Virus record (IMG/VR): IMGVR_UViG_2703718868_000012
Location: 1-9,571 of that record
Origin: a virus
Taxonomy: Duplodnaviria; Heunggongvirae; Uroviricota; Caudoviricetes
Strand: one strand, 5' to 3'
DNA length: 9,571 bases
In this document: positions 1-9,571 of the stretch, piece by piece
Position numbering within the stretch: the first letter of the stretch is position 1
How the letters are laid out: every line of letters starts with the position of its first letter
Notes under the pieces: model-generated
Seen by the model: only the letters and a program-made list of their open reading frames with translations
Database searches by the model: none
What the model was told of the DNA's origin: nothing
Made by a program: the position numbers and the translations under genes

Positions 1-1890
1 TCATAGTGAATCTGTCCCGCCTGATTTGACCATACCGCGATAATCCAGAGCTGCCACACCTGCATCAATACGGACTTTCCAGGCCACGCCGTCAACGATA
101 AAACCTTCCTGCTGTTCAAGGTAAGGCTCGTCATTGCCATCAAGATAAGCCACCTCGATTGTGTCCGTTCCCTGTGCGGAAAGCATGTACCATTGTTTTT
201 CGCTGATATCATCAAGGCGGGGATCGACGATGATATCAAGTAGCTTGTGATACGGGTTAAAGATCCCGCTGTTTTTATCAGCCCCGAAAGGTGCGGTTGA
301 GTTAATCATCTGCAACGCGCGATCTTCCAGTGCTGCCGGAACTAAAAGGAATTTAGGCGCAATATTCAGCACTTCGCCATTTTTGTCCTTCTGTGTGCGC
401 ATCAGGTGACGTGCTGCACTAAGTCCCGGTGTTGTCAGTCCTGCTTCAATCAGGTTGCTGTGTTTTTTGTCAAACAGCGCTATTCCGTCAGAAAGTTTTA
501 CGTTGCCTGTAAGCACCAGATTAACCAGATTTCCCACCGTTCTTGATGCTGCACGGCCCATAGCCATTGGCACCGTTGATAACTGATCAAGGTCATCATT
601 GATTATCGCCTGGCGGGTAATACTGAAAATATTCCCGTAAGTAGCCAGCGCGATGGGTTCACCGCGATCGCTGGTGGTGATGTATTTATATTCTGCCCCT
701 TCCGGCACTTTGTTTAACGTTGAGAAGCCATTCATACCAACGCGGCGGGCTTCCCGGAAGTTTGAAAGGGAACCTTTTTTCGTCCACTGGCGGAATGTTT
801 CGCCGCTGTGCTCCCAGCCTGCAAGCACTGATTTTTCAGCGCCACCAGCAAGAATATCGGTAAAATCGCTGCTGCTGTGGGTGAATGCCGCGTTTACTAT
901 CTGCGAGCGTGTGCCGTAGCTGCCCGTGCTTATACCACGATGGGTTAATGATGCCTGTGCCATATCGAAAAGGCTCATCATGGCGTAAGGATTACCGCGT
1001 TCGGCCCGTTCGTGACCAAGACGCGCATTAAGCCCCTGGCGCATTGCATCGCCGGTTATGTTGCCGTTATCCGTGTACGCGTAGTAAAGATTTGCGGGGG
1101 TGGTTTTGTTTGTTGGCGTTGATTCTTTACCCATAGCGAGTAAAAGGCGTTCGCGTGCATTCTCAACGCTACATTCTGAATCAGCAAGACAACTTATAGC
1201 CAGGTCGTTATATCTTCCGTTGAACGTGCCAAACAATTCACGTATCCCGTTGAGTCGTTCCTGTTCTCCGCTGCCAGTTTTCTGGCTGATCATGTTTTTA
1301 ATATTTTCCGGCATATTTGAAAAATCTCCGATTCGTTTTGATTCAATTCGGGCCATTGCTGTAATCGCGGGTATAACCTCATCTGCGAAACCGTTAGCCT
1401 TACACTCATTGCCATCCATCCAGGTTTCCGCCTCCATCATGGCGGTGATTTCCTGTTTACTCCTGCCCGTTCTTCCGGCGTAGGTTTCTGCCATCGTGTC
1501 GCCCAGCTTGTCCATCAGGTCAGCAAAGCGGCGAACGTCGCCCGACACTCCGGCAGTAACACCACGGGGGGCATGTATCATCATCATCGCGTTTTCAGGC
1601 ATAACGATGTGATCGCCACACATGGCAATAAACGAGGCCATAGAAGCCGCCATGCCCTCAATGTGTACAATTTTCTTTGCCGGATGATTTTTCAGGGCGT
1701 TATAGATAGCCAGCCCTTCAAAGATGTCGCCACCAGGTGAATGGATGCGAAGATGGATTTCAGACGCATTACCACACGCGTTGATCTCGTCAGTAAGTGC
1801 CGATGCTTTTACACCGTACCCGCCGATCTCGTCATAAATGCGCACATAGACAACATCTGCCATAGCCTTAATGGAAAACCATGTTTTCAT
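1..1890 (-). CDS. Prohead serine protease (ClpP-like) - scaffold-like linker - HK97-fold major capsid protein, single 629-aa polypeptide
   Basis: ATG at 1890, TGA at 3-1. N-terminal ~170 aa carry ClpP-like motifs GMAASMASF (compare E. coli ClpP GQAASMGAF around the catalytic Ser) and MMMIHAPRG (ClpP MIHQP, catalytic His). Middle ~100 aa are charged and helical. C-terminal ~330 aa look like an HK97-family major capsid protein (...FNPYHKLLDIIVDPRLDD...). Confidence 0.85.
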   Translation of the reverse strand: MKTWFSIKAMADVVYVRIYDEIGGYGVKASALTDEINACGNASEIHLRIHSPGGDIFEGLAIYNALKNHPAKKIVHIEGMAASMASFIAMCGDHIVMPENAMMMIHAPRGVTAGVSGDVRRFADLMDKLGDTMAETYAGRTGRSKQEITAMMEAETWMDGNECKANGFADEVIPAITAMARIESKRIGDFSNMPENIKNMISQKTGSGEQERLNGIRELFGTFNGRYNDLAISCLADSECSVENARERLLLAMGKESTPTNKTTPANLYYAYTDNGNITGDAMRQGLNARLGHERAERGNPYAMMSLFDMAQASLTHRGISTGSYGTRSQIVNAAFTHSSSDFTDILAGGAEKSVLAGWEHSGETFRQWTKKGSLSNFREARRVGMNGFSTLNKVPEGAEYKYITTSDRGEPIALATYGNIFSITRQAIINDDLDQLSTVPMAMGRAASRTVGNLVNLVLTGNVKLSDGIALFDKKHSNLIEAGLTTPGLSAARHLMRTQKDKNGEVLNIAPKFLLVPAALEDRALQMINSTAPFGADKNSGIFNPYHKLLDIIVDPRLDDISEKQWYMLSAQGTDTIEVAYLDGNDEPYLEQQEGFIVDGVAWKVRIDAGVAALDYRGMVKSGGTDSL

Positions 1891-2081
1891 AGCCAGGCCC
1901 CTAACGTTGCCCTGTACCAGTATTCAACCGCGCTGCGTGTGATTTGTCCTTTCGTGGGTACTGGCATACCCGGGTGATTATCTTTGATGAACTGCTGATA
2001 GCGTTCGATCTTCTCCATAGTTCCGGCGTCTATGTGTACCGTGGCACTTTTATCCGGCTTTCTGGTGTTGTTCTCTGGCAT
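1887..2081 (-). CDS. Hypothetical 64-aa protein, first gene of the capsid operon
   Basis: Strong SD AAGGAGGTGG (plus 2087-2096) ~5 nt before the ATG at 2081. Stop overlaps the capsid ATG as ATGA (1887-1890). The track ORF begins 11 codons further upstream without an RBS. No recognisable motif. Confidence 0.5.
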   Translation of the reverse strand: MPENNTRKPDKSATVHIDAGTMEKIERYQQFIKDNHPGMPVPTKGQITRSAVEYWYRATLGAWL

Positions 2082-2157
2082 AAATCCACCTCCTTTTTGG
2101 TTAACGGGCATCATTATTGATCGATAAAAGTAATAGATAAATCATTTTCTACCTGAA

Positions 2158-2311: not shown

Positions 2312-2508
2312 GCGCCTGTTTTTTGTAAATGTTTTCGGGAACGTTCCGGTGATGAACAAAAAACAACCTGATTCGATACTAAAAATTTTTATTTCTCAAC
2401 ATATCAATAGCTTATAGTGGTGGTGATGGTGCCATAAAAATCAAAAAATGCGCCTTTTTCCGCGCCCCTCCGCCCCGTGTTCAGGCCCACCCCGCCAGGA
2501 GGACCCGT

Positions 2509-2532
2509 AAAAAAGCCGGATTGCTCCGGCTT
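2509..2532 (-). terminator. Rho-independent terminator downstream of the ssb-like gene
   Basis: Hairpin AAGCCGG (2513-2519) / CCGGCTT (2526-2532), loop ATTGCT. On the minus strand it is followed by a U-tract (plus-strand A6 at 2509-2514). Lies ~15 nt past the stop at 2547-2549. Confidence 0.6.
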
Positions 2533-2546
2533 CTGTCACTCGTCGC

Positions 2547-2969
2547 TTAAAACGGTATGTTATCCCCGTACGGATCATCATTCCCCGCCTGTTGTTTTGC
2601 CCTGTTCAGCGCGTCAGTAGCCTGGCCCTGTTGACCTTTTTTGCCGCCCAGTCGCGCCGTTCGCGCACTGATTACACTGTCTGCGATAACCTGCCAGCCC
2701 TGCCGCGTTTCTCCGTTCTGCCCAGTCCACTGGCTGATCTGCATGTTACCCGCCACGCTCAGGAGTTCACCCTTGCGGTGCCTTTCCAGTGCTTCGGCCT
2801 GTCTGCCAAATGCCAGGACGGATAACCACATCGTCGCCGTTCCGTCATCTGCCTGGCTGCACGGAAGGGGGACCGCCATACGCGCCAGCGTCATCGGTGT
2901 GCCCTTGCTGGTCTGTTTTACCTGCGGGTCGTCCACCAGCCGCCCGTAAGCGGCTATCTGTGCTGTCAT
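2547..2969 (-). CDS. ssb: Single-stranded DNA-binding protein (SSB-like, OB fold with acidic ...IPF tail)
   Basis: 140 aa. N-terminal region aligns by eye with E. coli SSB (GRL..DP.V...W..V..FG..AE....KG....V.G......W....G..R). Gly/Gln-rich linker. C-terminus DDPYGDNIPF resembles the conserved SSB tail DDDIPF. ATG at 2969 overlaps the upstream stop as ATGA. Confidence 0.8.
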   Translation of the reverse strand: MTAQIAAYGRLVDDPQVKQTSKGTPMTLARMAVPLPCSQADDGTATMWLSVLAFGRQAEALERHRKGELLSVAGNMQISQWTGQNGETRQGWQVIADSVISARTARLGGKKGQQGQATDALNRAKQQAGNDDPYGDNIPF

Positions 2970-3223
2970 GATTCCACCTCTCCGGTTTTAACGTTGATTG
3001 TTGTTACCTGTTCCGCTTCGGCAATCTCCCGCTCTGTCAGCGTGGCAAAATTTGCCGCCGTCGTGGTCATGAATGCGCTTATCAGTTCGGGATGTGCTTT
3101 CGCGTATCCTTCCCCCGTGTTGCGGTCGATGATTTTTATCGCCACTCTCAGCCAGTGCTCTGTAAGGTCAATGGCGCGGTTATGCTGCTTCTTCTGATTA
3201 TTAAGTTTTCCTGATGTGCGCAT
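2966..3223 (-). CDS. Hypothetical 85-aa protein between the origin and ssb
   Basis: ATG at 3223 with a G-rich SD-like stretch (GAGGGGG) ~13 nt upstream; 4-nt ATGA overlap with ssb. No recognisable motif. Confidence 0.5.
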   Translation of the reverse strand: MRTSGKLNNQKKQHNRAIDLTEHWLRVAIKIIDRNTGEGYAKAHPELISAFMTTTAANFATLTEREIAEAEQVTTINVKTGEVES

Positions 3224-3271
3224 TTTTATTTTTACCCCCTCGTTTAAAAAGTTTTGAGTTGTGCCTCCCCT

Positions 3272-3498
3272 TGTCTACCTTATCTACCTTACTGGCCACC
3301 ATGCCAGTAATGGCGCGGCTTTCAGTGGGGTAGAGTGCTTTTATCCACTATCTACCCCGTATCTACCTCCCTGTCTGATTCAGGTAAAATCAGGTAGAGA
3401 GGGTAGATAGTAGGTAGACAGTAAAAAAAGGCTGTCTACCCAAGTTAATGTACTGAATTAAATGTATTTTTCTTTACTCAGGTAGACAGGGTAGACAG
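3272..3498. repeat. Iteron array, putative replication origin
   Basis: Eleven copies of the core GGTAGA / TCTACC. Plus-orientation TCTACC at 3274, 3283, 3351, 3362, 3435; reverse GGTAGA at 3329, 3393, 3402, 3413, 3481, 3490. Includes tandem GGTAGACAG x2 (3481-3498) and a 9-bp inverted pair GGTAGACAG (3413-3421) / CTGTCTACC (3432-3440). AT-rich stretch 3441-3480. Sits immediately 3' of the primase gene. Confidence 0.7.
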
Positions 3499-3511
3499 CC
3501 ATTGCAACAAA

Positions 3512-5266
3512 TTATAAAAACGCGTCGCAATCGTCTGTTGTTATTGCGTTAGTCTGCGTTACTCCTTTAACTTTCCGCGTAATATATTCATGTCCGTAAA
3601 CTTTCGCGGCTGGCTTCATAGCCTTGCCAAAGTCATTTACGTTTAGCGGTTTGCTCCTGCCTGCGTACGCCATAAACGCCAGATAGACGCGGTAAAGGCT
3701 GTTTCTGGTCGTGTACTTCACTGAATCGCCACCGCCGCCCATCATCAGGCCGCGTGCTTCCTCCAGAAAATTCAGGAACTGGCAAAACTCAATAACCGGA
3801 TCCGTCTGTTGCTTTATTGCCAGTGCTTCATCACCGTCACGCTGTTCCAGTAGTAAAGCCCGTGCCTTCTCAGGGTCGGTAAAGTTCGCCAGCAATCGGC
3901 GGATAATGACAGGGATTTCAGCCGCAATCTTTTCCGGTAGCTCCCTGTCTTTTTCGGCCTCACTGACGATATTGTCGAAACGGAAAATCACGCGACGACG
4001 TGCCACACCTCCGGCCCGTTCGGTGAATATCATCGGGTTATTGTTGGTCGCCAGCACCACCGCCCTGATTACAGCCGTGAAACGCTTTTCGTATTTCGGG
4101 TTAATTTCCACGGGGTCACCGCCCGTGATTTTCTTGATGCCCGTTCCTTCGCCTGTATATTTCGGCTGGTCAGCCAGGACGATAAGGCGACTCCCGACAA
4201 CCTGCGCACGTCCACCAGCATCATCAAGCGATGTCATTTCAGCGCTTACCGTGTTCTGTTTCCCTGCCAGAAGGCTGGCTATGTGTGTGAATGTACTTTT
4301 ACCGCTCCCGCCGTCTCCGGTGGCCTCAATAAACATCTGCCAGTCGTACCGGTTCGCCATAATCATGTACAGCGCGGCACATATCCGCATCATCTTGCGC
4401 GGGTCTTTTCCGGCTGCGTGCTCAAGCCATTTATGAAAGTTTGGCGCGTTATCGCGGATGTTCTCCCCTGGTGCTGGTGGCGTGTACTCAATACTGTTGT
4501 GCGTGGTGATCCAGTTCTCCGGCGTGTGCGGGGAAAATTCCCCCGTTTTCAGGTCAAGCGCACCATTGGCAAACGGCAGCAAATCGCCGGACGGCTCGCC
4601 CATTGGTTCGGCAATAACTTTTAACGCTTCCACGGCGTTATTGATTACGCGCTTGCTGAAAGTGGCCCTGTGCTCTGAATAGATCGCCACCATTTCGCGG
4701 CTAAGTTCCATTGTGCTGACCGGACACCATACCCCGCCGCGCCATACGTGAACGATTTCACTTTCAGGATGCACGCAAACGCCATCAAATCGTCCGGCAA
4801 GAAGTTGAGCGCGCTCACTGTCCGCCATCTGCGAAAGTTGCGCCTTTTGCTTTACAGGAAGCTCAATAACCAGCCCATCAGAAAGATTCTGGCGCTCACT
4901 GGCCAGATATTCGCGCCAGTTCTCCACCTTCTGACCGTGCATACCATCAGGGTAAAAATTTGCATCCTGTACGCCTGCCGCCGCCAGCTTCTGACCAATC
5001 GCCTTTATCATTACTGGCGCAAGATATCCGGCCCTGAATATGCGCACGGATTTTCTGCCTTCCGGCACAATTTGCAGCTTATCCAGTTCTGATAACTGCT
5101 GCTCCCCAAGCCACACAGGAGGCTCATTATCTCCGGCCATACGCGCGTCATGTTCCTGCCATTGTTTCGCGTGTGACCAGGCATCACTACCCGCAAAAAT
5201 AATGACTTCTGTTTCTTTGTGTTTTATGCCGCGTGGCTGCTGTTTTACGTTCGGTGCCAGTTTCAT
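3512..5266 (-). CDS. Phage/plasmid primase, P4 family (primase-helicase, D5-like NTPase)
   Basis: 584 aa. Walker A GDGGSGKST seen directly; a Walker B-like hydrophobic stretch ...LIVLAD... follows. Overall resemblance to the P4-alpha C-terminal / D5-type replicative primase-helicases of satellites. ATG at 5266 overlaps the upstream stop as ATGA; SD AGGGG ~8 nt upstream. Confidence 0.85.
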   Translation of the reverse strand: MKLAPNVKQQPRGIKHKETEVIIFAGSDAWSHAKQWQEHDARMAGDNEPPVWLGEQQLSELDKLQIVPEGRKSVRIFRAGYLAPVMIKAIGQKLAAAGVQDANFYPDGMHGQKVENWREYLASERQNLSDGLVIELPVKQKAQLSQMADSERAQLLAGRFDGVCVHPESEIVHVWRGGVWCPVSTMELSREMVAIYSEHRATFSKRVINNAVEALKVIAEPMGEPSGDLLPFANGALDLKTGEFSPHTPENWITTHNSIEYTPPAPGENIRDNAPNFHKWLEHAAGKDPRKMMRICAALYMIMANRYDWQMFIEATGDGGSGKSTFTHIASLLAGKQNTVSAEMTSLDDAGGRAQVVGSRLIVLADQPKYTGEGTGIKKITGGDPVEINPKYEKRFTAVIRAVVLATNNNPMIFTERAGGVARRRVIFRFDNIVSEAEKDRELPEKIAAEIPVIIRRLLANFTDPEKARALLLEQRDGDEALAIKQQTDPVIEFCQFLNFLEEARGLMMGGGGDSVKYTTRNSLYRVYLAFMAYAGRSKPLNVNDFGKAMKPAAKVYGHEYITRKVKGVTQTNAITTDDCDAFL

Positions 5267-5562
5267 TTTTTGCCCCTGAATCCGTTAATCATGTTTTTCA
5301 TCTTCTGAATATTGGCGCGTGCTTTCTCCCTGCTGGTGGGCACGTTACGCGGTACGGCCTGCACAAGAGAAAAATCACGCCGGAACTGATAAACAGGCAT
5401 CACGCAATCATATTCGTAACCTTCACGGCGGTAAGTTACGCACCGTCCCGCCACGCCCTTAATCATTACCGTGCCGCCGTACTGGTCGCGGTAAATATCA
5501 CCGCGCGTAAATTTAGGGTGAGTGTTGCCACTGGCAGTTAAGCCAGAATATTTAAATTTCAT
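5263..5562 (-). CDS. Hypothetical 99-aa protein, translationally coupled to the primase
   Basis: ATG at 5562, 5 nt after the upstream TAA; stop overlaps the primase ATG. Basic protein, no motif recognised. Confidence 0.5.
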   Translation of the reverse strand: MKFKYSGLTASGNTHPKFTRGDIYRDQYGGTVMIKGVAGRCVTYRREGYEYDCVMPVYQFRRDFSLVQAVPRNVPTSREKARANIQKMKNMINGFRGKK

Positions 5563-5567
5563 TATTT

Positions 5568-5801
5568 TTATTCTCCGGTGTGCTGTTCGTTATATCTGTC
5601 GTGCAATTGGTCTATTTCTTGCAGTTCCATTATTACAGGCTCAAGAAGCGTTATTAATGCCGTGGCAATTCTTGATTTTTGTTTGTCGCGTTCATTGTCG
5701 CCAAGTGTTTCAAGCCATATGCGCAATATTTCCAGCATGTTTTCACTGTGAGAAAGTGCAAGAAATGCGCGGTATATTGTTTCAAGATAAATATCACGCA
5801 T
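5568..5801 (-). CDS. Hypothetical 77-aa protein
   Basis: ATG at 5801 with a G-rich SD-like stretch (GGGGA) ~6 nt upstream; start sits 1 nt after the upstream stop (TAATATG). Predicted helical, acidic. Confidence 0.5.
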   Translation of the reverse strand: MRDIYLETIYRAFLALSHSENMLEILRIWLETLGDNERDKQKSRIATALITLLEPVIMELQEIDQLHDRYNEQHTGE

Positions 5802-5802
5802 A

Positions 5803-6024
5803 TTAATCCCCGTCCGTTGTTTTTCTTAAAACAGCTTCTGTCACGAAATCGGCATAGTTAGCGGCAATATCAAGAATATTTAGCCCTGTATCTCTGTGCT
5901 CATCAGTGCAAAGAAAGAAAAAAGCCACCCGCATAATTTCAGATATTAACGAAAGCGCATCAACCGCATCATCAGGAACGCCGGAAAATTCTTGTTTCAG
6001 GGAATTAAAACGATCATCACGCAT
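5803..6024 (-). CDS. Hypothetical 73-aa protein (start chosen at the internal ATG after the G8 tract)
   Basis: ATG at 6024 lies 2 nt after a G8 run that can act as SD, and overlaps the upstream gene's stop by 8 nt. The track start at 6072 would overlap the upstream gene by 56 nt with no RBS. Confidence 0.45.
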   Translation of the reverse strand: MRDDRFNSLKQEFSGVPDDAVDALSLISEIMRVAFFFLCTDEHRDTGLNILDIAANYADFVTEAVLRKTTDGD

Positions 6025-6238
6025 AACCCCCCCCATTTTCACAATCAGCAACAAGAATATTTTTAGCGTCATTCAGTGACCGCGTTGCGGTGTATCGGAT
6101 ACATTCCAGGGCGAATAGTGTGTATTCTTCCCGTCCTTCCTTTTGTGCAAGCTCTGCTGTGCATTCAATATCAATAAGCGCGTGCATCAGCGTAGTGAGT
6201 GCGGCAGCTGCTGCGTCCGGTGTGGTTTTATTGTGCAT
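6017..6238 (-). CDS. Hypothetical 73-aa protein
   Basis: ATG at 6238 preceded by AGGGGGA ~6 nt upstream. The track start at 6277 is a TTG without RBS support. The last codons (...ENGGGYA) run through the G8 tract. Confidence 0.45.
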   Translation of the reverse strand: MHNKTTPDAAAAALTTLMHALIDIECTAELAQKEGREEYTLFALECIRYTATRSLNDAKNILVADCENGGGYA

Positions 6239-6428
6239 AGGTTTCCCCCTGGCGAATACGGGCGGCGAATACCGCAATACAACCGGACGGGCAACGGCTA
6301 CGCGCTTCGCGTTCCGTCCAGGCGGTTACGTGGATGATTTGAGATTCTCCGGCACTCAGTGCCAGAAAACGCCACACAAAGGCCGTTTGTGTGTGTGCTA
6401 GTCGTGGGGTATGATTTACGGCAACCAT
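6228..6428 (-). CDS. Hypothetical 66-aa protein, first ORF of the small-ORF/primase operon
   Basis: ATG at 6428 with SD GAGAGGT ~6 nt upstream; ends 11 nt inside the next ORF in another frame. No motif recognised. Confidence 0.4.
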   Translation of the reverse strand: MVAVNHTPRLAHTQTAFVWRFLALSAGESQIIHVTAWTEREARSRCPSGCIAVFAARIRQGETYAQ

Positions 6429-6502
6429 AAATTTACCTCTCTATAGTGTTTGTGGTTAGACGCCCTGCATGTGTTCCAGCACTGTGGGGCGTTGTTTTTT
6501 GG

Positions 6503-6575
6503 TGCAAGTCACCTTGAAATCTAGGTTACTTTTAGGTGACTTGCACTTCAAGTCTTTTTTTATTTTTTTTTCTCC
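6503..6575. promoter_or_regulatory. Divergent control region: 12-bp perfect inverted repeat (operator-like) followed by a hairpin and long T-tract
   Basis: TGCAAGTCACCT (6503-6514) and AGGTGACTTGCA (6534-6545) are exact reverse complements, 19-bp spacer. Second hairpin GACTTG (6538-6543) / CAAGTC (6549-6554) is followed by T7-A-T9 (6555-6571). Lies between the divergent starts at 6428 (minus) and 6613 (plus). Confidence 0.45.
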
Positions 6576-6612
6576 GTATACTGAACACCACCTAACAGTA
6601 AGGAGAACAGAG

Positions 6613-6792
6613 ATGCCAACAGGTACAACCAACAACAAGTCACAACAAAAAACTGCTAGAGTACCTCTAGACGTTTTAAGCGAAATGAATTTGGTAAAAG
6701 AAGAAAACGAAACAGACGCACAATTTATCGTTACTGCCATGCGCGGCGAAATCAAACGCCGCCAGCGTCGCAAGGCCAAAGAATCAGAATAA
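6613..6792 (+). CDS. Small basic protein, possible ribbon-helix-helix DNA-binding regulator (59 aa)
   Basis: Canonical SD AAGGAG (6600-6605) 7 nt before the ATG at 6613. Sequence ...ARVPLDVLSEMNLVKEENETDAQFIVTAMRGEIKRRQRRK fits a beta-strand / helix / loop / helix RHH pattern with a basic tail. The first ~120 nt are markedly AT-rich. The longer track ORF from 6469 would translate the palindrome and T-tract. Confidence 0.55.
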   Translation: MPTGTTNNKSQQKTARVPLDVLSEMNLVKEENETDAQFIVTAMRGEIKRRQRRKAKESE

Positions 6793-6849
6793 TCACTATC
6801 AGCGCCGTGGTGTGAGGTACTACGGCGCATTGCTTTACAGGGCAGTATC

Positions 6850-7077
6850 ATGACCAACAACACACTATCACCAATACAAGACACGCAAACGCAAGATGAT
6901 GAAATCATCCGGCAAAGGCAGTCAGAAGCCTGCGCCAGACTTGAGGAAGAACTAACCAGAACAAAAATACCACCACCAGCGCCGCGCTTAGTGCCACCAG
7001 AAAAATTTGCCCTTGAAGATTTTGTCGATAAATACCCACGGCGGCTTAAATCCGGCAAAAACCGACCGCCAGGATGA
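6850..7077 (+). CDS. Hypothetical 75-aa protein (acidic, helical N-half, Pro-rich C-half)
   Basis: ATG at 6850 with a weak GGG SD ~7 nt upstream; reading frame looks protein-like. Preceded by hairpin GCGCCGT (6802-6808) / ACGGCGC (6822-6828). Confidence 0.4.
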   Translation: MTNNTLSPIQDTQTQDDEIIRQRQSEACARLEEELTRTKIPPPAPRLVPPEKFALEDFVDKYPRRLKSGKNRPPG

Positions 7078-7196
7078 GTGCACAAGACGGAACCATGAAA
7101 CGGATTATTCCGTTTCCGGGGCGTTTGTGTGTGTATAAAGAGTAAGCTATGCTCTTTTATAGCCATAATCGTTACCTCAATTAATGGTTTGGTTAG

Positions 7197-7238
7197 AAGC
7201 CCGTTGGTGTTCATAGCGCCAGCGGGCTTTGCTTTTTG
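7197..7238 (+). terminator. Rho-independent terminator ending the 6613-7077 transcription unit
   Basis: 11-bp stem AAGCCCGTTGG (7197-7207) / CCAGCGGGCTT (7219-7229) with one G-U pair, 11-nt loop, then a U-rich tail TTGCTTTTTGTG. Confidence 0.5.
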
Positions 7239-7248
7239 TGTTGATTGT

Positions 7249-7282
7249 ATGTAATGTGTCACCACGCATAAATACATTACAT
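7249..7282 (+). promoter_or_regulatory. 9-bp perfect inverted repeat, candidate operator just upstream of the Arc-like gene
   Basis: ATGTAATGT (7249-7257) and ACATTACAT (7274-7282) are exact reverse complements, 16-bp spacer. Preceded by a TTGATT -35-like hexamer (7241-7246); ends 15 nt before the GTG start. Confidence 0.35.
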
Positions 7283-7296
7283 GAGGTGTAATTAAC

Positions 7297-7476
7297 GTGT
7301 CAACACACAAAAACGAAAGGCGTGGTAATCCTCCGTTCCAGTTCCGTTTAGATCCTGACTTACGGGAAAAGATGGAAAAGGCACAACAACATGACGGCGA
7401 TGATTCTCTTGCTGCCTGGATAAAGCGAATAATCCGCAAAGAATTACAGCAACGCGGCATAGAACCCAAAGGGTAA
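7297..7476 (+). CDS. Arc-family ribbon-helix-helix DNA-binding protein (59 aa)
   Basis: GTG at 7297 with SD GAGGTG 8 nt upstream. PPFQFRLDPDLREKMEKAQQHDGDDSLAAWIKRIIRKEL matches the Arc repressor pattern (P22 Arc PQFNLRWPREVLDLVRKVAEENGRSVNSEIYQRV). Absent from the supplied track (GTG start, under 60 aa). Confidence 0.6.
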   Translation: MSTHKNERRGNPPFQFRLDPDLREKMEKAQQHDGDDSLAAWIKRIIRKELQQRGIEPKG

Positions 7477-7571
7477 TTACATTGCCCACCAGCCTGATAG
7501 CGGCTATCATTCCCGTGCTTATGTTTGGGATCACATACACATAAGGCGCAGCAGGTTAATTGTTCACAAGG

Positions 7572-7597
7572 GCGTTCCGGCAACGGGGCGCTTTTTG
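7572..7597 (+). terminator. Terminator-like hairpin plus T5 downstream of the Arc-like gene
   Basis: Stem GCGTTCC (7572-7578) / GGGGCGC (7585-7591) including G-U pairs, loop GGCAAC, then TTTTT. No U-tract on the opposite strand. Confidence 0.35.
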
Positions 7598-7626
7598 TTA
7601 TGTTCATCGTGTCAAGCCTCACACCA

Positions 7627-7833
7627 TTACGCAGCCGTTCCGCGTGCTTCCTGCTCACGTTCTTTCATCCATGCGATTACGTCTTCCTCATACCATCCGC
7701 GACGGCGTAAACCAACGCGAAAACCCTGCGGAAATTCTCCGGCGTTGATCATGCTTTGAAGCGTGCTGTCTGCCTTGATGTGGATAAGTTTTTTTACTTC
7801 CTGGCGAAAGATGACTTTTTTGATTGCTTCCAT
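7627..7833 (-). CDS. alpA: AlpA-family transcriptional regulator / excisionase-like protein (68 aa)
   Basis: ...IKADSTLQSMINAGEFPQGFRVGLRRRGWYEEDVIAWMKE matches the AlpA pattern (helix-turn-helix, then G.FP...LG.R...W...V..W). Sits near the integrase as in P4-like and PICI elements. Confidence 0.8.
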   Translation of the reverse strand: MEAIKKVIFRQEVKKLIHIKADSTLQSMINAGEFPQGFRVGLRRRGWYEEDVIAWMKEREQEARGTAA

Positions 7834-7965
7834 CGTGATTTACCTTGTGAATCCGGTGTATTCCGGTGACAAATACGGTAAATCATCGGATACGGGTAAA
7901 AACAGTTCCCACCGTTTTTAAACTGTTAGAACCGTTTTTTATGTTGGTGATTTGAAAGGGATTTA

Positions 7966-7990
7966 TAAAAAAAGCGGCATTTCTGCCGCT
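7966..7990 (-). terminator. Rho-independent terminator after the 83-aa ORF
   Basis: Perfect 7-bp stem AGCGGCA (7973-7979) / TGCCGCT (7984-7990), loop TTTC. On the minus strand it is followed by U7 (plus-strand A-run 7967-7973). Lies 11 nt past the stop at 8001. Confidence 0.6.
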
Positions 7991-8000
7991 TTGAGGATTG

Positions 8001-8252
8001 TTACCGCCATTTTTTTGGCCTGCCTCCGGTCTTCATGGTTGCCGGACGAACTACCCTGTCGATACTTTCAGCCATATTCCTGGATGCCCCACGGGATACC
8101 AGGAAATCTACTACCTGTTTTTTTGATGGGGCCGTCGTTCTGTCCTCCGGATCGTAGGTTGACCAAAATTCATGCTGAACCATCAGGGCCAGTTGCAGCC
8201 CGTCGCAATTGCATCTGAAATTTTTTTGCATCTTAACGGTTTCATGTTTCAC
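8001..8252 (-). CDS. Hypothetical 83-aa protein between integrase and alpA
   Basis: Open frame with GTG at 8252 (weak AAGG SD) or internal ATG at 8231; basic C-terminus ...KTGGRPKKWR; own terminator. Start uncertain. Confidence 0.4.
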   Translation of the reverse strand: MKHETVKMQKNFRCNCDGLQLALMVQHEFWSTYDPEDRTTAPSKKQVVDFLVSRGASRNMAESIDRVVRPATMKTGGRPKKWR

Positions 8253-8329
8253 GGCCTTGTCGTTAAATTTGATGCAATTATACGACGGTTTTACATGGTT
8301 TTCGTAGTTTTTACTGGTTTTCTGTACAG

Positions 8330-9571
8330 CTAAACGGCTCGGATACCCCTTTTACCACTGGCGAGGGTTACGCCCGTCGCCGCAGCCTCGACAAATTCGC
8401 CCCACCAGCGCATAAGCACCACGCGTTTTTCTATGTAGTTGCTCCGGTTGTATGCCCGTCTCACTTCGTTAGTGTCGACGTGGGCAAGTGCGGCCTCGAT
8501 TACGTCCGGCTCGAATCCTTCCTCGTTCGCTGCTGTACTGAATATGGCGCGTAATCCATGAGACACCAGCACGCCAGCGAACCCCATGCGTCGTAATGCT
8601 GCGTTTGCTGTCTGGCTGTTCATTGGCTGCCGTGGGTCTTTCAGACTCGGGAAAACATAATCGCGGTGGCGGCTGATTGGTTTCATGGCCTCCAGCACCG
8701 CCATAGCCTGACCGGAAAGTGGGATAACGTGATCCCTGCGCATCTTCATGCGTCCGGCGGGTATCGTCCAGCGTTGCGCGTCCAGGTCGATTTCATCCCA
8801 CCGCGTTGATGACGCTTCGGCGGGACGGGTTACGGTCAGTAACTGCCATTCAATCAGTAATCTGGTCTGCCGTTCTGTTGCCGATACTGATAAAGCCTGC
8901 ATAAGCTCCGGCAACTGTTCGGGGCGGATTGTTGGCATATGTTTTTTTACAGGGGAGGGGAACGCCTTACGCACATTCATAGCCGGATTGGCATCAATCA
9001 GCCCACTGTTGGCGGCGTAATCCATTACCTCATTAACGCGCTGTAAAACCCGTTTGAGTGTTTCCAGGTTGCCGCGCTCCTTGATGGGGGTAAGCACCTC
9101 AACGAACCTGCGAGCGGTCAGGGTGTCTATTGGGGTGTTGCCGATGAACGGGAATACATATTTATCCAGCGATCGCCAGATGTCTTTAATCGTGTTGGGG
9201 GCCAGATTCTGGCTGATTTTCACCTGGTACCATGCCGCCGCCACATTTTCGAACGTGTTCCCTTGTCTTCGGGCCTCTGCCTCTCGTTTTTTCTTCTCAT
9301 GGCCCTGCGGGTCAGTTCCGGCACTGATTAACGCTCTGTACTCGCTACGGCGTTTTCTGGCATCAGCCAGGGAAACATCATCAAGCGATCCAAAACTCAG
9401 CAATATTCTTTTTTTGTCCGATGGCCGGTAGTAGGAAAATCGCCAGAGTTTTGATCCGGACGGTTTGACCAGGAGAAAAAGCCCTCCGCCGTCCTGTAGG
9501 GTGTATTCCTTTTCCGCTGGTCTGGCTGCTTTGATCTGCACCGTGGTTAATGGGGGTGTTTTTCTCGCCAT
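8330..9571 (-). CDS. int: Site-specific tyrosine integrase, P4 / CP4-57 type
   Basis: 413 aa. N-terminus MARKTPPLTTVQIKAARPAEKEYTLQDGGGLFLLVKPSGSKLWRFSYY is typical of P4-family integrase arm-binding domains. C-terminal catalytic region carries HGLR... and ...RAYNRSNY (candidate His/Arg/Tyr residues). ATG is at the very last bases of the window, so upstream signals are unseen. Confidence 0.9.
   Translation of the reverse strand: MARKTPPLTTVQIKAARPAEKEYTLQDGGGLFLLVKPSGSKLWRFSYYRPSDKKRILLSFGSLDDVSLADARKRRSEYRALISAGTDPQGHEKKKREAEARRQGNTFENVAAAWYQVKISQNLAPNTIKDIWRSLDKYVFPFIGNTPIDTLTARRFVEVLTPIKERGNLETLKRVLQRVNEVMDYAANSGLIDANPAMNVRKAFPSPVKKHMPTIRPEQLPELMQALSVSATERQTRLLIEWQLLTVTRPAEASSTRWDEIDLDAQRWTIPAGRMKMRRDHVIPLSGQAMAVLEAMKPISRHRDYVFPSLKDPRQPMNSQTANAALRRMGFAGVLVSHGLRAIFSTAANEEGFEPDVIEAALAHVDTNEVRRAYNRSNYIEKRVVLMRWWGEFVEAAATGVTLASGKRGIRAV

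Follow-up and report, generated by a model that had tools for sequence, protein, structure and literature searches.

The window, i.e. the whole stretch of 9,571 nucleotides that was analysed, has an integrase at one end and, at the other, a gene whose product unites a ClpP-fold domain, a central helical domain and an HK97-fold capsid domain. The main gene set lies on the minus strand. The features are the following, those of the fusion gene first.

1..1890, minus strand: tripartite prohead protease/scaffold/major capsid protein gene (ORF list, NF045540, PHROG 133, annotation of the closest genome, L001)
1366..1890, minus strand: ClpP-fold protease domain, residues 1-175, with Ser83 at 1642-1644, His106 at 1573-1575 and Glu155 at 1426-1428
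1312..1329, minus strand: candidate internal start, SD GGAG at 1329-1326, 11-nt spacer and Met193 ATG at 1314-1312 (from conservation)
1081..1365, minus strand: central linker or scaffold-like domain, residues 176-270 (AlphaFold, Gifsy-2 alignment, dN/dS 0.10)
1066..1101, minus strand: disordered segment, residues 264-275, the sole stretch with pLDDT below 50
4..1080, minus strand: HK97-fold major capsid domain, residues 271-629, with N-arm helix 278-291 and spine helix 435-462
1887..2114, minus strand: 75-aa small ORF (phrog_4934), whose 3' end overlaps the fusion gene start (ATGA)
2320..2530, minus strand: cos-like site, copy A, with hairpin 2530-2515, cosQ GGGTCCT 2506-2500, cosN-like stretch at about 2476-2459, then the cosB-side region
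2547-2969, minus strand: SSB
2966-3223, minus strand: phrog_1231
3512-5266, minus strand: D5/P4-type primase
5263-5562, minus strand: DUF4222
5568-6277, minus strand: small ORFs
6228-6428, minus strand: Icd-like gene
6613-6792 and 7297-7476, plus strand: divergent small regulators
7627-7833, minus strand: AlpA-like HTH
8330-9571, minus strand: integrase

The fusion gene starts with the ATG at 1890-1888, ends with the stop at 3-1 and encodes 629 residues without any internal stop (ORF list). PGAP calls the same CDS in the same frame in L001. A preliminary description of this DNA had proposed that protease, scaffold and capsid are encoded by one ORF, and this was confirmed: the full-length ORF is found in 143 of the 144 complete E. 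coli genomes carrying this allele, without a stop or frameshift that splits the protease from the capsid portion. The annotations of 143 complete E. coli genomes already include near-identical proteins.

Profile searches matched both ends of this chain. In the N-terminal part, Pfam CLP_protease is found at residues 41-173 (E=3e-33) and the head-maturation protease domain NF045542 at residues 16-172. The ClpP-type Ser and His motifs noticed earlier correspond to GMAASMAS (residues 79-86) and MMMIHAP (residues 102-108); in an alignment with solved ClpP, Ser83 and His106 fall on its catalytic Ser and His, and Glu155 occupies the position of the ClpP Asp. All three residues are unchanged across 74 related genes, which makes them candidates for the catalytic residues of the domain. 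We know of no need for ClpX or ClpA in prohead proteases of the ClpP-like phage type. In the C-terminal part, Pfam Phage_capsid_4 is found at residues 331-623 (E=8e-55), and a profile of this part matches solved Mu-GpT capsids in the PDB, as anticipated for a capsid-like remainder; in a single-sequence phmmer search against the PDB, ClpP was the sole match and the capsid part was found only by profile.

Structure prediction also recovered the three segments. With a 114-sequence alignment, AlphaFold gave a model with an overall pLDDT of 90.4, which supersedes that from a shallower 15-sequence alignment (pLDDT only 43.9, capsid part below 30). In this model the protease domain has a ClpP (crotonase-like) fold and the capsid domain an HK97 fold with N-arm, spine helix, A and P domains. 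Between them, helices are predicted at residues 184-189, 195-202, 208-221, 228-236 and 242-256 (pLDDT mostly above 80), followed by the disordered segment 264-275, so that a helical domain lies N-terminal to the capsid domain, as in a fused scaffold. By alignment, it corresponds to the central domain of about 200 residues in the Gifsy-2 gene. The central segment had been described as a charged helical linker; the five model helices agree with the second adjective, but not with the first, since its composition (Asp+Glu 12.6%, Lys+Arg 12.6%) is close to that of the flanking domains (11.7-13.1% and 9.1-10.0%, respectively), and we do not retain charge as a distinctive trait. From the model, the disordered segment is the probable maturation-cleavage zone between the scaffold and the mature capsid protein.

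The protein scores 891.3 bits against NCBIfam NF045540, named [quoted passage not shown], for which the whole-protein cut-off is 475 bits; the alignment reaches the end of the model, and both halves are in one uninterrupted chain. It is assigned to PHROG 133, and NCBI proteins 99% identical to it already bear the NF045540 name. At the level of this family there is no difference to report, and the name does not separate phage from satellite copies. [quoted passage not shown] In Gifsy-2 and mEp460, which share this layout, the gene lies between those for the portal and the decoration protein, and there is no second capsid gene there. The satellite gene differs from these phage genes in having neither a portal nor a decoration gene next to it, in its linker (90 aa, where 61 prophage genes have a median of 119 aa) and in its capsid domain, which falls in a separate clade made up of satellite copies only. 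The additional stretch of the phage-length linker lies between residues 211 and 212.

Lambda (C/Nu3/E) and HK97 (gp4/gp5) have the equivalent functions: a protease, an HK97-fold shell and a scaffold, which is Nu3 in lambda and the gp5-fused delta domain in HK97. Of these, just the protease and scaffold are joined in lambda, and just the scaffold and capsid in HK97, whose protease is not ClpP-like; in contrast, the fusion gene has all three functions in one reading frame. The prohead protease and coat genes of Gifsy-2 have been described as fused (PMC12315714), and its tripartite capsid gene appears in the title of Effantin 2010 (Virology 402:355). Since the family is curated, is widespread with thousands of cluster representatives and was, going by that title, described for Gifsy-2 in 2010, the fused architecture is already known and adds nothing new by itself.

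In L001, local alignment delimits an island of about 10.1 kb between 25-bp imperfect repeats; a search for long direct repeats as att sites found none. The backbone at 2547..9571 on the minus strand is repeated, in the same gene order, in L001 and L003-L006. The primase has D5_N, DUF5906 and Pox_D5 domains and scores 109.5 bits against the P4-family model TIGR01613 (cut-off 108.7), so that the island has a primase of its own. The 68-aa HTH protein at 7627-7833 scores 17.8 bits against Phage_AlpA, under the cut-off of 21, and its equivalent in L003 carries PF05930. The 75-aa ORF accompanies the fusion gene in satellites; it has no similarity to the gpW-like adaptor of the helper and belongs to no Pfam or NCBIfam family. 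Neither annotation nor tblastn revealed tail or lysis genes in the island, and its size falls within the range of about 10-20 kb of PICIs. Annotation and homologue searches found no portal, terminase, head-tail adaptor or decoration protein in it; in particular, the portal, adaptor, TerL and TerS of mEp460 have no homologue in the window or in L001, and none is annotated. Within the window, Rfam gave zero matches, PADLOC no defence genes, and a promoter and terminator scan near the fusion gene nothing beyond shuffled expectation.

On this gene content (integrase at one end, AlpA-like protein, P4-type primase, SSB and cos), the island is a Gram-negative PICI-type phage satellite of E. coli, and the satellite context supposed in the preliminary description stands. 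The cf-PICIs EcCIEDL933 and EcCI2, of about 14-15 kb, carry portal, head-tail connectors, HNH, TerS and TerL; we rejected membership of this class because the island has none of these, lacking its own portal, head-tail adaptor or connector and large terminase. We also rejected a P4-like satellite, as searches of Pfam, PHROGs and NCBIfam matched no ORF of the window to the psu-delta-sid capsid-size operon; what the island has in common with P4 is limited to the P4-family primase domain and the Icd-like gene. A capsid gene, on the other hand, is a recognised core component of Gram-negative PICIs.

Two cos-like copies, resembling those of a helper, flank the fusion gene, copy A at 2320..2530 and the second just past position 1 of the window. 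In copy A, the hairpin at 2530-2515 is terminator-like and the cosN-like stretch G-rich; this copy shares 91.7% identity with the sequence preceding terS in phages 1720a-02 and CP-1639, matches the end of the mEp460 genome and was also aligned with the cos of Stx2 phage and lambda. Overall, the cos-like sites are 90-92% identical to the sequence directly upstream of terS in Stx2, CP-1639 and 1720a-02 phages. Moreover, satellites with a 91%-identical allele of the fusion gene lie embedded within the terL of prophages, which for their part carry a fusion gene of 680 aa. Both this embedding and the cos similarity point to a helper that would be a lambdoid phage of the same head type (Stx, mEp460 or Gifsy-2-like). 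A TerS homologue is present in sister islands. The occurrence of two cos copies cannot be taken as a novelty, since EcCICFT073 is already known with two cos sites.

The whole fusion gene has a dN/dS of 0.087 at a dS of 0.55, with 0.12 for the protease, 0.10 for the linker and 0.07 for the capsid domain: all three are under strong purifying selection. In the capsid domain, satellite copies from five genera are monophyletic and far from any sampled prophage gene, being about 40% diverged from each sampled prophage version, and the protease domains show a mosaic relationship to those of phages. The linker measures 90-94 aa in satellite copies and 98-160 aa in prophages (median 119, about 27 aa longer). 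We are therefore dealing with a strongly selected gene whose linker length differs systematically from that of the helper versions.

The preliminary description spoke of a single polypeptide. There is indeed one reading frame, but this account is possibly incomplete, since an internal RBS and Met193 suggest a second product devoid of the protease. A Met is kept at position 193 in 71 of 74 related genes, the SD core occurs in all 42 distinct upstream sequences (42/42, for a background of 7%), and the codon at -5 to Met193 is invariably GAG, AAG, GGA or CAG. This suggests a candidate nested product of 437 aa comprising scaffold and capsid, in parallel with the in-frame Nu3 start within lambda gene C. 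At 10-11 nt, the SD-to-ATG spacer is rather long for a predicted internal start. Nested protease-scaffold precedents are known in lambda, HSV-1 and HFTV1 (bioRxiv 10.64898/2026.09.13.751334); should the conserved internal start prove real, this lambda/herpesvirus/HFTV1 scheme would reach tripartite genes as well.

Taken together, we consider with a probability of about 0.8 that the locus is a Gifsy-2-type tripartite capsid gene (NF045540) on a Gram-negative PICI-type E. coli satellite of about 10 kb, working as follows. The C-terminal HK97-fold domain would polymerise into a procapsid shell. The helical central domain would play the part of a scaffold, covalently joined to the chain and comparable to lambda Nu3 or the HK97 delta domain, and would pull the N-terminal ClpP-fold protease, with its putative Ser83/His106/Glu155 triad, inside the shell. 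After assembly, the protease would cut off itself and the scaffold, probably within residues 264-275, leaving a mature capsid protein of about 39 kDa; we infer this scaffold removal by the prohead protease from Gifsy-2 and HK97, and the self-processing assembly put forward earlier would follow by homology from the 54% identity to the Gifsy-2 gene. The internal RBS and Met193 would probably yield a protease-less scaffold-capsid chain as well, and the ratio of protease to shell would be fixed by this chain, as by C/Nu3 in lambda. Portal, terminase, decoration protein and tail would come from the lambdoid helper with the same head type, as the satellite has no such genes. The gene had also been presented as a self-sufficient head gene; this did not hold, because portal, terminase, head-tail adaptor and decoration protein are all absent from the island. 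The likeliest role in the satellite would be to supply shell subunits for particles built on helper portals.

Other satellites carry capsid genes with which this one can be compared. c1499 of EcCICFT073, Ccm of SaPIbov5 and the fusion gene are all satellite-borne homologues of helper capsid genes, located at the late end of the island near cos. However, c1499, a lambda-E-type capsid protein, has neither a protease nor a scaffold fused to it and is accompanied by a separate decoration gene, and Ccm is only 23% identical to the helper capsid protein and depends on it, whereas the fusion chain brings its own protease and scaffold. Ccm redirects capsid size (PMC6893505), and in PICI models a "capsid morphogenesis" gene is thought to modify hijacked capsids (PMC10085698). 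In EcCICFT073, deletion of the capsid gene left interference unrelieved, no role in transfer was detected, and the DNA is packaged in full-size heads without size redirection. EcCICFT073 is the only tested case of such satellite capsid genes, and it gave no phenotype. It lends no support to the preliminary suggestion that the fused scaffold could set capsid size. Because its sole head gene unites protease, scaffold and shell, the present island is a cleaner test case than EcCICFT073 for the function of satellite capsid genes.

On the model of Ccm, the fusion protein could be mainly a factor of interference or size redirection, co-assembling or competing with the helper fusion protein to give shells from which the 45-kb helper genome is shut out or which are defective for it. 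The precedents just cited speak for it, as do the consistently shorter satellite linkers and an island of about 10 kb, some four times smaller than the helper genome. We nevertheless hold it to be unlikely, if worth keeping in mind: a pure poison or modifier needs no active protease, and here the triad is invariant and the protease dN/dS is 0.12; a divergence of about 40% between the capsid domain and every sampled prophage version makes mixed lattices less likely; EcCICFT073 shows no redirection; and the shorter linker may go back to one inherited event.

A more ambitious form of the preferred capsid-supply reading is a minimal capsid-forming system of one gene, in which satellite chains would nucleate on the helper portal and form shells specific to the satellite, perhaps of small size (T=3 or T=4), around one 10-kb genome. 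This may be suggested by the capsid clade of its own, the linker shorter by about 27 aa, the intact protease and the candidate nested scaffold-capsid product, and we regard it as rather doubtful. If true, the island would stand midway between cf-PICIs, with genes for a whole head, and classical PICIs, which rework the capsids of the helper, and shells made from one gene and a helper portal would offer a compact system for the control of capsid geometry by a fused scaffold.

It is quite improbable that the gene is passive cargo, i.e. a late gene taken from the helper through recombination near cos and at most a spare copy, for instance where the satellite interrupts helper late genes. PICI capsid genes have been reported as not required for transfer, with late-gene capture as a proposed origin (PMC10111431), and the cos-like repeats on both sides of the gene and the mosaic protease domains would suit such a capture. 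But the strong purifying selection on three domains at a dS of 0.55, the monophyly of the satellite capsid domains across five genera, the ORF intact in 143 of 144 genomes and the conserved partnership with the upstream 75-aa ORF all argue for a gene in use.

The family is otherwise typical of lambdoid prophages, and the gene could then have been left over from a full head module in a decayed prophage. This is very hard to reconcile with the lack of portal, terminase or tail pseudogenes, with the own P4-type primase and cos sites, and with the compact order integrase, AlpA, DUF4222, primase, SSB, small ORF and fusion gene, which turns up again at other attachment sites and in further genera. 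Finally, a sequencing or assembly artefact joining a separate protease gene to a capsid gene is excluded for practical purposes by the full-length ORF in 143 of the 144 genomes with the allele, in the identical frame, by the curated NCBIfam model for the fused protein and by 5,669 cluster representatives at E<=1e-30, the best 150 of which are nearly all full-length fusions of 620-790 aa.

In the minus strand of the window we found a long reading frame which, as the preliminary description had proposed, fuses a protease and a capsid protein in a single chain. Its features are as follows.

1890 to 4 (stop codon at 3-1), minus strand: uninterrupted fusion ORF of 629 aa
1081-1365, minus strand: linker, used for length comparison with L003, L008 and L014-L093
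1312-1329, minus strand: putative internal Shine-Dalgarno GGAG and ATG of Met193, at the protease/scaffold boundary

Pfam searches identified CLP_protease at residues 41-173 (E=3e-33) and Phage_capsid_4 at residues 331-623 (E=8e-55). The announced ClpP-type Ser and His motifs are present as GMAASMAS (residues 79-86) and MMMIHAP (residues 102-108). In alignments with solved ClpP, Ser83 and His106 match the catalytic Ser and His and Glu155 occupies the catalytic Asp position; none of the three varies across 74 related genes, satellite and prophage copies alike. The sole inaccuracy of the earlier observation was to call the linker charged: with 12.6% acidic and 12.6% basic residues it resembles the flanking domains. 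AlphaFold gave a pLDDT of 43.9 with a shallow alignment and of 90.4 with 114 diverse homologues; the latter model contains a compact domain (residues 1-175), five helices (184-256), one disordered stretch (264-275) and a large domain (278-629) with a long spine helix (435-462).

The protein matches NCBIfam NF045540 with 891 bits (cut-off 475) as well as PHROG 133, and 99%-identical proteins were already deposited under the NF045540 name. Full-length homologues, 52-54% identical, are present in Stx-converting phages, VT1-Sakai, mEp460, cdtI and Gifsy-2. In mEp460, Gifsy-2 and one E. coli prophage, the fusion gene lies between the portal and decoration protein genes and we detected no second capsid gene, hence it is the major capsid gene of those phages. 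This gene type is that of Gifsy-2, called a "tripartite capsid gene" in the title of Effantin et al. 2010. Such fusions are common: when 1.84 billion cluster representatives were searched exhaustively, 5,669 matched at E<=1e-30, and nearly all of the 150 best are fusions of 620-790 aa. The fusion finding is accurate, yet it concerns a known curated family in a known satellite class.

That class was recognized from the neighbouring genes.

8330-9571, minus strand: integrase
7627-7833, minus strand: AlpA-like HTH protein
6228-6428, minus strand: Icd-like protein
5263-5562, minus strand: DUF4222 protein
3512-5266, minus strand: D5/P4-type primase
2547-2969, minus strand: SSB
1887-2114, minus strand: 75-aa ORF overlapping the fusion start

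The closest complete genome, L001, is 95.9% identical across 93% of the window, and its island of about 10.1 kb is flanked by tRNA-Pro and yejO. Neither annotation nor homologue search revealed portal, terminase, decoration, tail or lysis genes in the L001 island. The window and this island have the organisation of a Gram-negative PICI, whose core comprises an integrase, an AlpA-type regulator, a primase-replicase, a gene for "capsid morphogenesis" and, in many cases, terS (PMC10085698); among the Gram-negative PICIs used as reference, 21 of 29 have a capsid gene (PMC10111431). We rejected membership of the cf-PICIs, which require terL, portal and connectors, absent here. The sid/psu/delta set of P4 is also absent from the island.

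Of 5,426 complete E. coli genomes, 144 carry the fusion allele, and many of these belong to Shiga-toxin-producing strains. Compared with a 91%-identical allele, dN/dS is 0.087 at dS 0.55 (protease 0.12, linker 0.10, capsid 0.07). Among 80 loci from other genomes, we counted as satellite copies those with a homologue of the 75-aa ORF and no portal gene upstream; eight were found, in Escherichia, Trabulsiella, Buttiauxella, Kluyvera and Moellerella. Their linker measures 90-94 aa, whereas that of 61 portal-following genes measures 98-160 aa (median 119), the two ranges being disjoint. The protease core has 160 aa in each of the eight satellite copies, and 160-161 aa in the prophage copies with a single exception; the capsid part has 343-359 aa in both groups. 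In the alignment, the shortfall corresponds to a Pro/Gln/Ala-rich spacer and roughly ten residues of the helix that follows. Satellite copies are monophyletic for the capsid domain, at a distance of 0.39-0.41 from the nearest prophage gene, so the short linker may be a single inherited event; for the protease domain they are not monophyletic. The short linker fits a satellite-specific adaptation, without proving it.

Right after the protease domain, Met193 (MPENIK) is a Met in 71 of 74 genes, and all 42 distinct upstream sequences contain GGAG, GAGG or AGGA 5-16 nt before it; only 7% of the other internal Met codons of these genes have such a core upstream. Five codons before Met193 the residue can be E, K, G or Q, but the codon is always GAG, AAG, GGA or CAG, and Glu is encoded there by GAG in 30 of 30 cases although these genes use GAA for 62% of their Glu codons. 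This fixed codon choice despite a varying residue indicates a constraint at the nucleotide level. The pattern suggests a candidate internal ribosome-binding site that would produce a 437-aa scaffold-capsid chain devoid of protease, the in-frame nested scheme of lambda C/Nu3, HSV-1 and the archaeal virus HFTV1. At 10-11 nt (11 nt in the window), the spacer is on the long side.

The 75-aa ORF and the fusion gene lie between two cos-like copies that share 71% identity; in sister satellites, whose fusion allele is 63% identical, a terS-like gene is also present.

Window ~2320-2530, non-coding: cos-like copy A
L001 11777-11996, 200 bp just past window position 1, non-coding: cos-like copy B
L003 (sister satellite) 12171-12656, directly after copy B: TerS homologue, 161-aa DUF1441 protein

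The region preceding terS in phages 1720a-02 and CP-1639 shares 91.7% identity with copy A, which also matches the mEp460 genome end; copy B shares 90.5% identity with the stretch lying 42-237 bp ahead of terS in Stx2 phages. In each copy the cosQ heptamer of lambda, GGGTCCT, precedes a G-rich cosN-like stretch at lambda-like spacing, an arrangement similar to the reported cos of mEp213/LLS. They differ mostly on the cosB side, and may serve two helper groups; EcCICFT073 was already known to have two cos sites (PMC6739421). The 91%-identical allele belongs to satellites inserted into prophage terL (L008 1-17580; also L009 and L010), and the host prophages possess a portal, a cement protein and a fusion gene of their own, of 680 aa. 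The arrangement is that of a helper-embedded PICI, with satellite and helper sharing a head type. A Kluyvera locus (L065) resembles it. The TerS homologue is 62% identical to mEp460 TerS; the window's lineage lacks its gene and retains only the next 93-aa ORF (phrog_1561). Cos similarity, prophage embedding and the TerS homologue together make it very probable that the helper is a lambdoid phage of the same head type.

By analogy with Gifsy-2, HK97 and lambda, the shell would be formed by the capsid domain, with the helical domain acting as a tethered scaffold that brings the protease inside; once assembly is complete, the protease would excise itself together with the scaffold, probably by a cut in 264-275. 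The initial interpretation is partly supported: the three-part, self-processing design appears right, but a self-sufficient head gene does not suit an island without portal, terminase or decoration genes, and size setting by the scaffold is conjectural. We favour a role in which satellite-made shell subunits would assemble on helper portals, the satellite DNA being packaged at its cos by the helper terminase. Any strong role is weakened by EcCICFT073, where deletion of the capsid gene (lambda E type) did not relieve interference and DNA was found in full-size heads, and by the reported dispensability of PICI capsid genes for transfer (PMC10111431). Ccm-type interference or size redirection is possible, but leaves the conserved protease unexplained. 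Purifying selection and the separate position of the satellite clade make passive cargo unlikely. A prophage remnant is excluded by the recurring compact island order and the lack of any portal or terminase homologue, and an assembly artefact by the full-length gene in 143 of the 144 carrier genomes and the many fusions among the cluster representatives. The satellite-specific short linker and the conserved candidate internal start may merit follow-up, as may the island itself, which offers a one-gene test of PICI capsid gene function.

The divergent regulatory region carries two small plus-strand genes.

7297-7476, plus strand: Arc-like 59-aa ORF
6613-6792, plus strand: YlcI/YnfO-type 59-aa ORF

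Opposite them, a Cys/Ser/Leu-rich 400-aa ORF (6456-7658, minus strand), unannotated in related genomes, is most likely not a gene. The Arc-like ORF lies inside a segment of about 600 bp (6879-7480) that replaces about 160 bp of L001; this divergent regulatory module is variable. The island is bracketed by an imperfect direct repeat of 25 bp, CGTATAACYAAACGTATAACTAAAA (L001 11149-11173 and 21233-21257, about 10.1 kb from each other). The repeat could represent an att core or an integrase-binding motif, and one of its copies is located outside the tRNA-Pro gene, at a distance of 130 bp.
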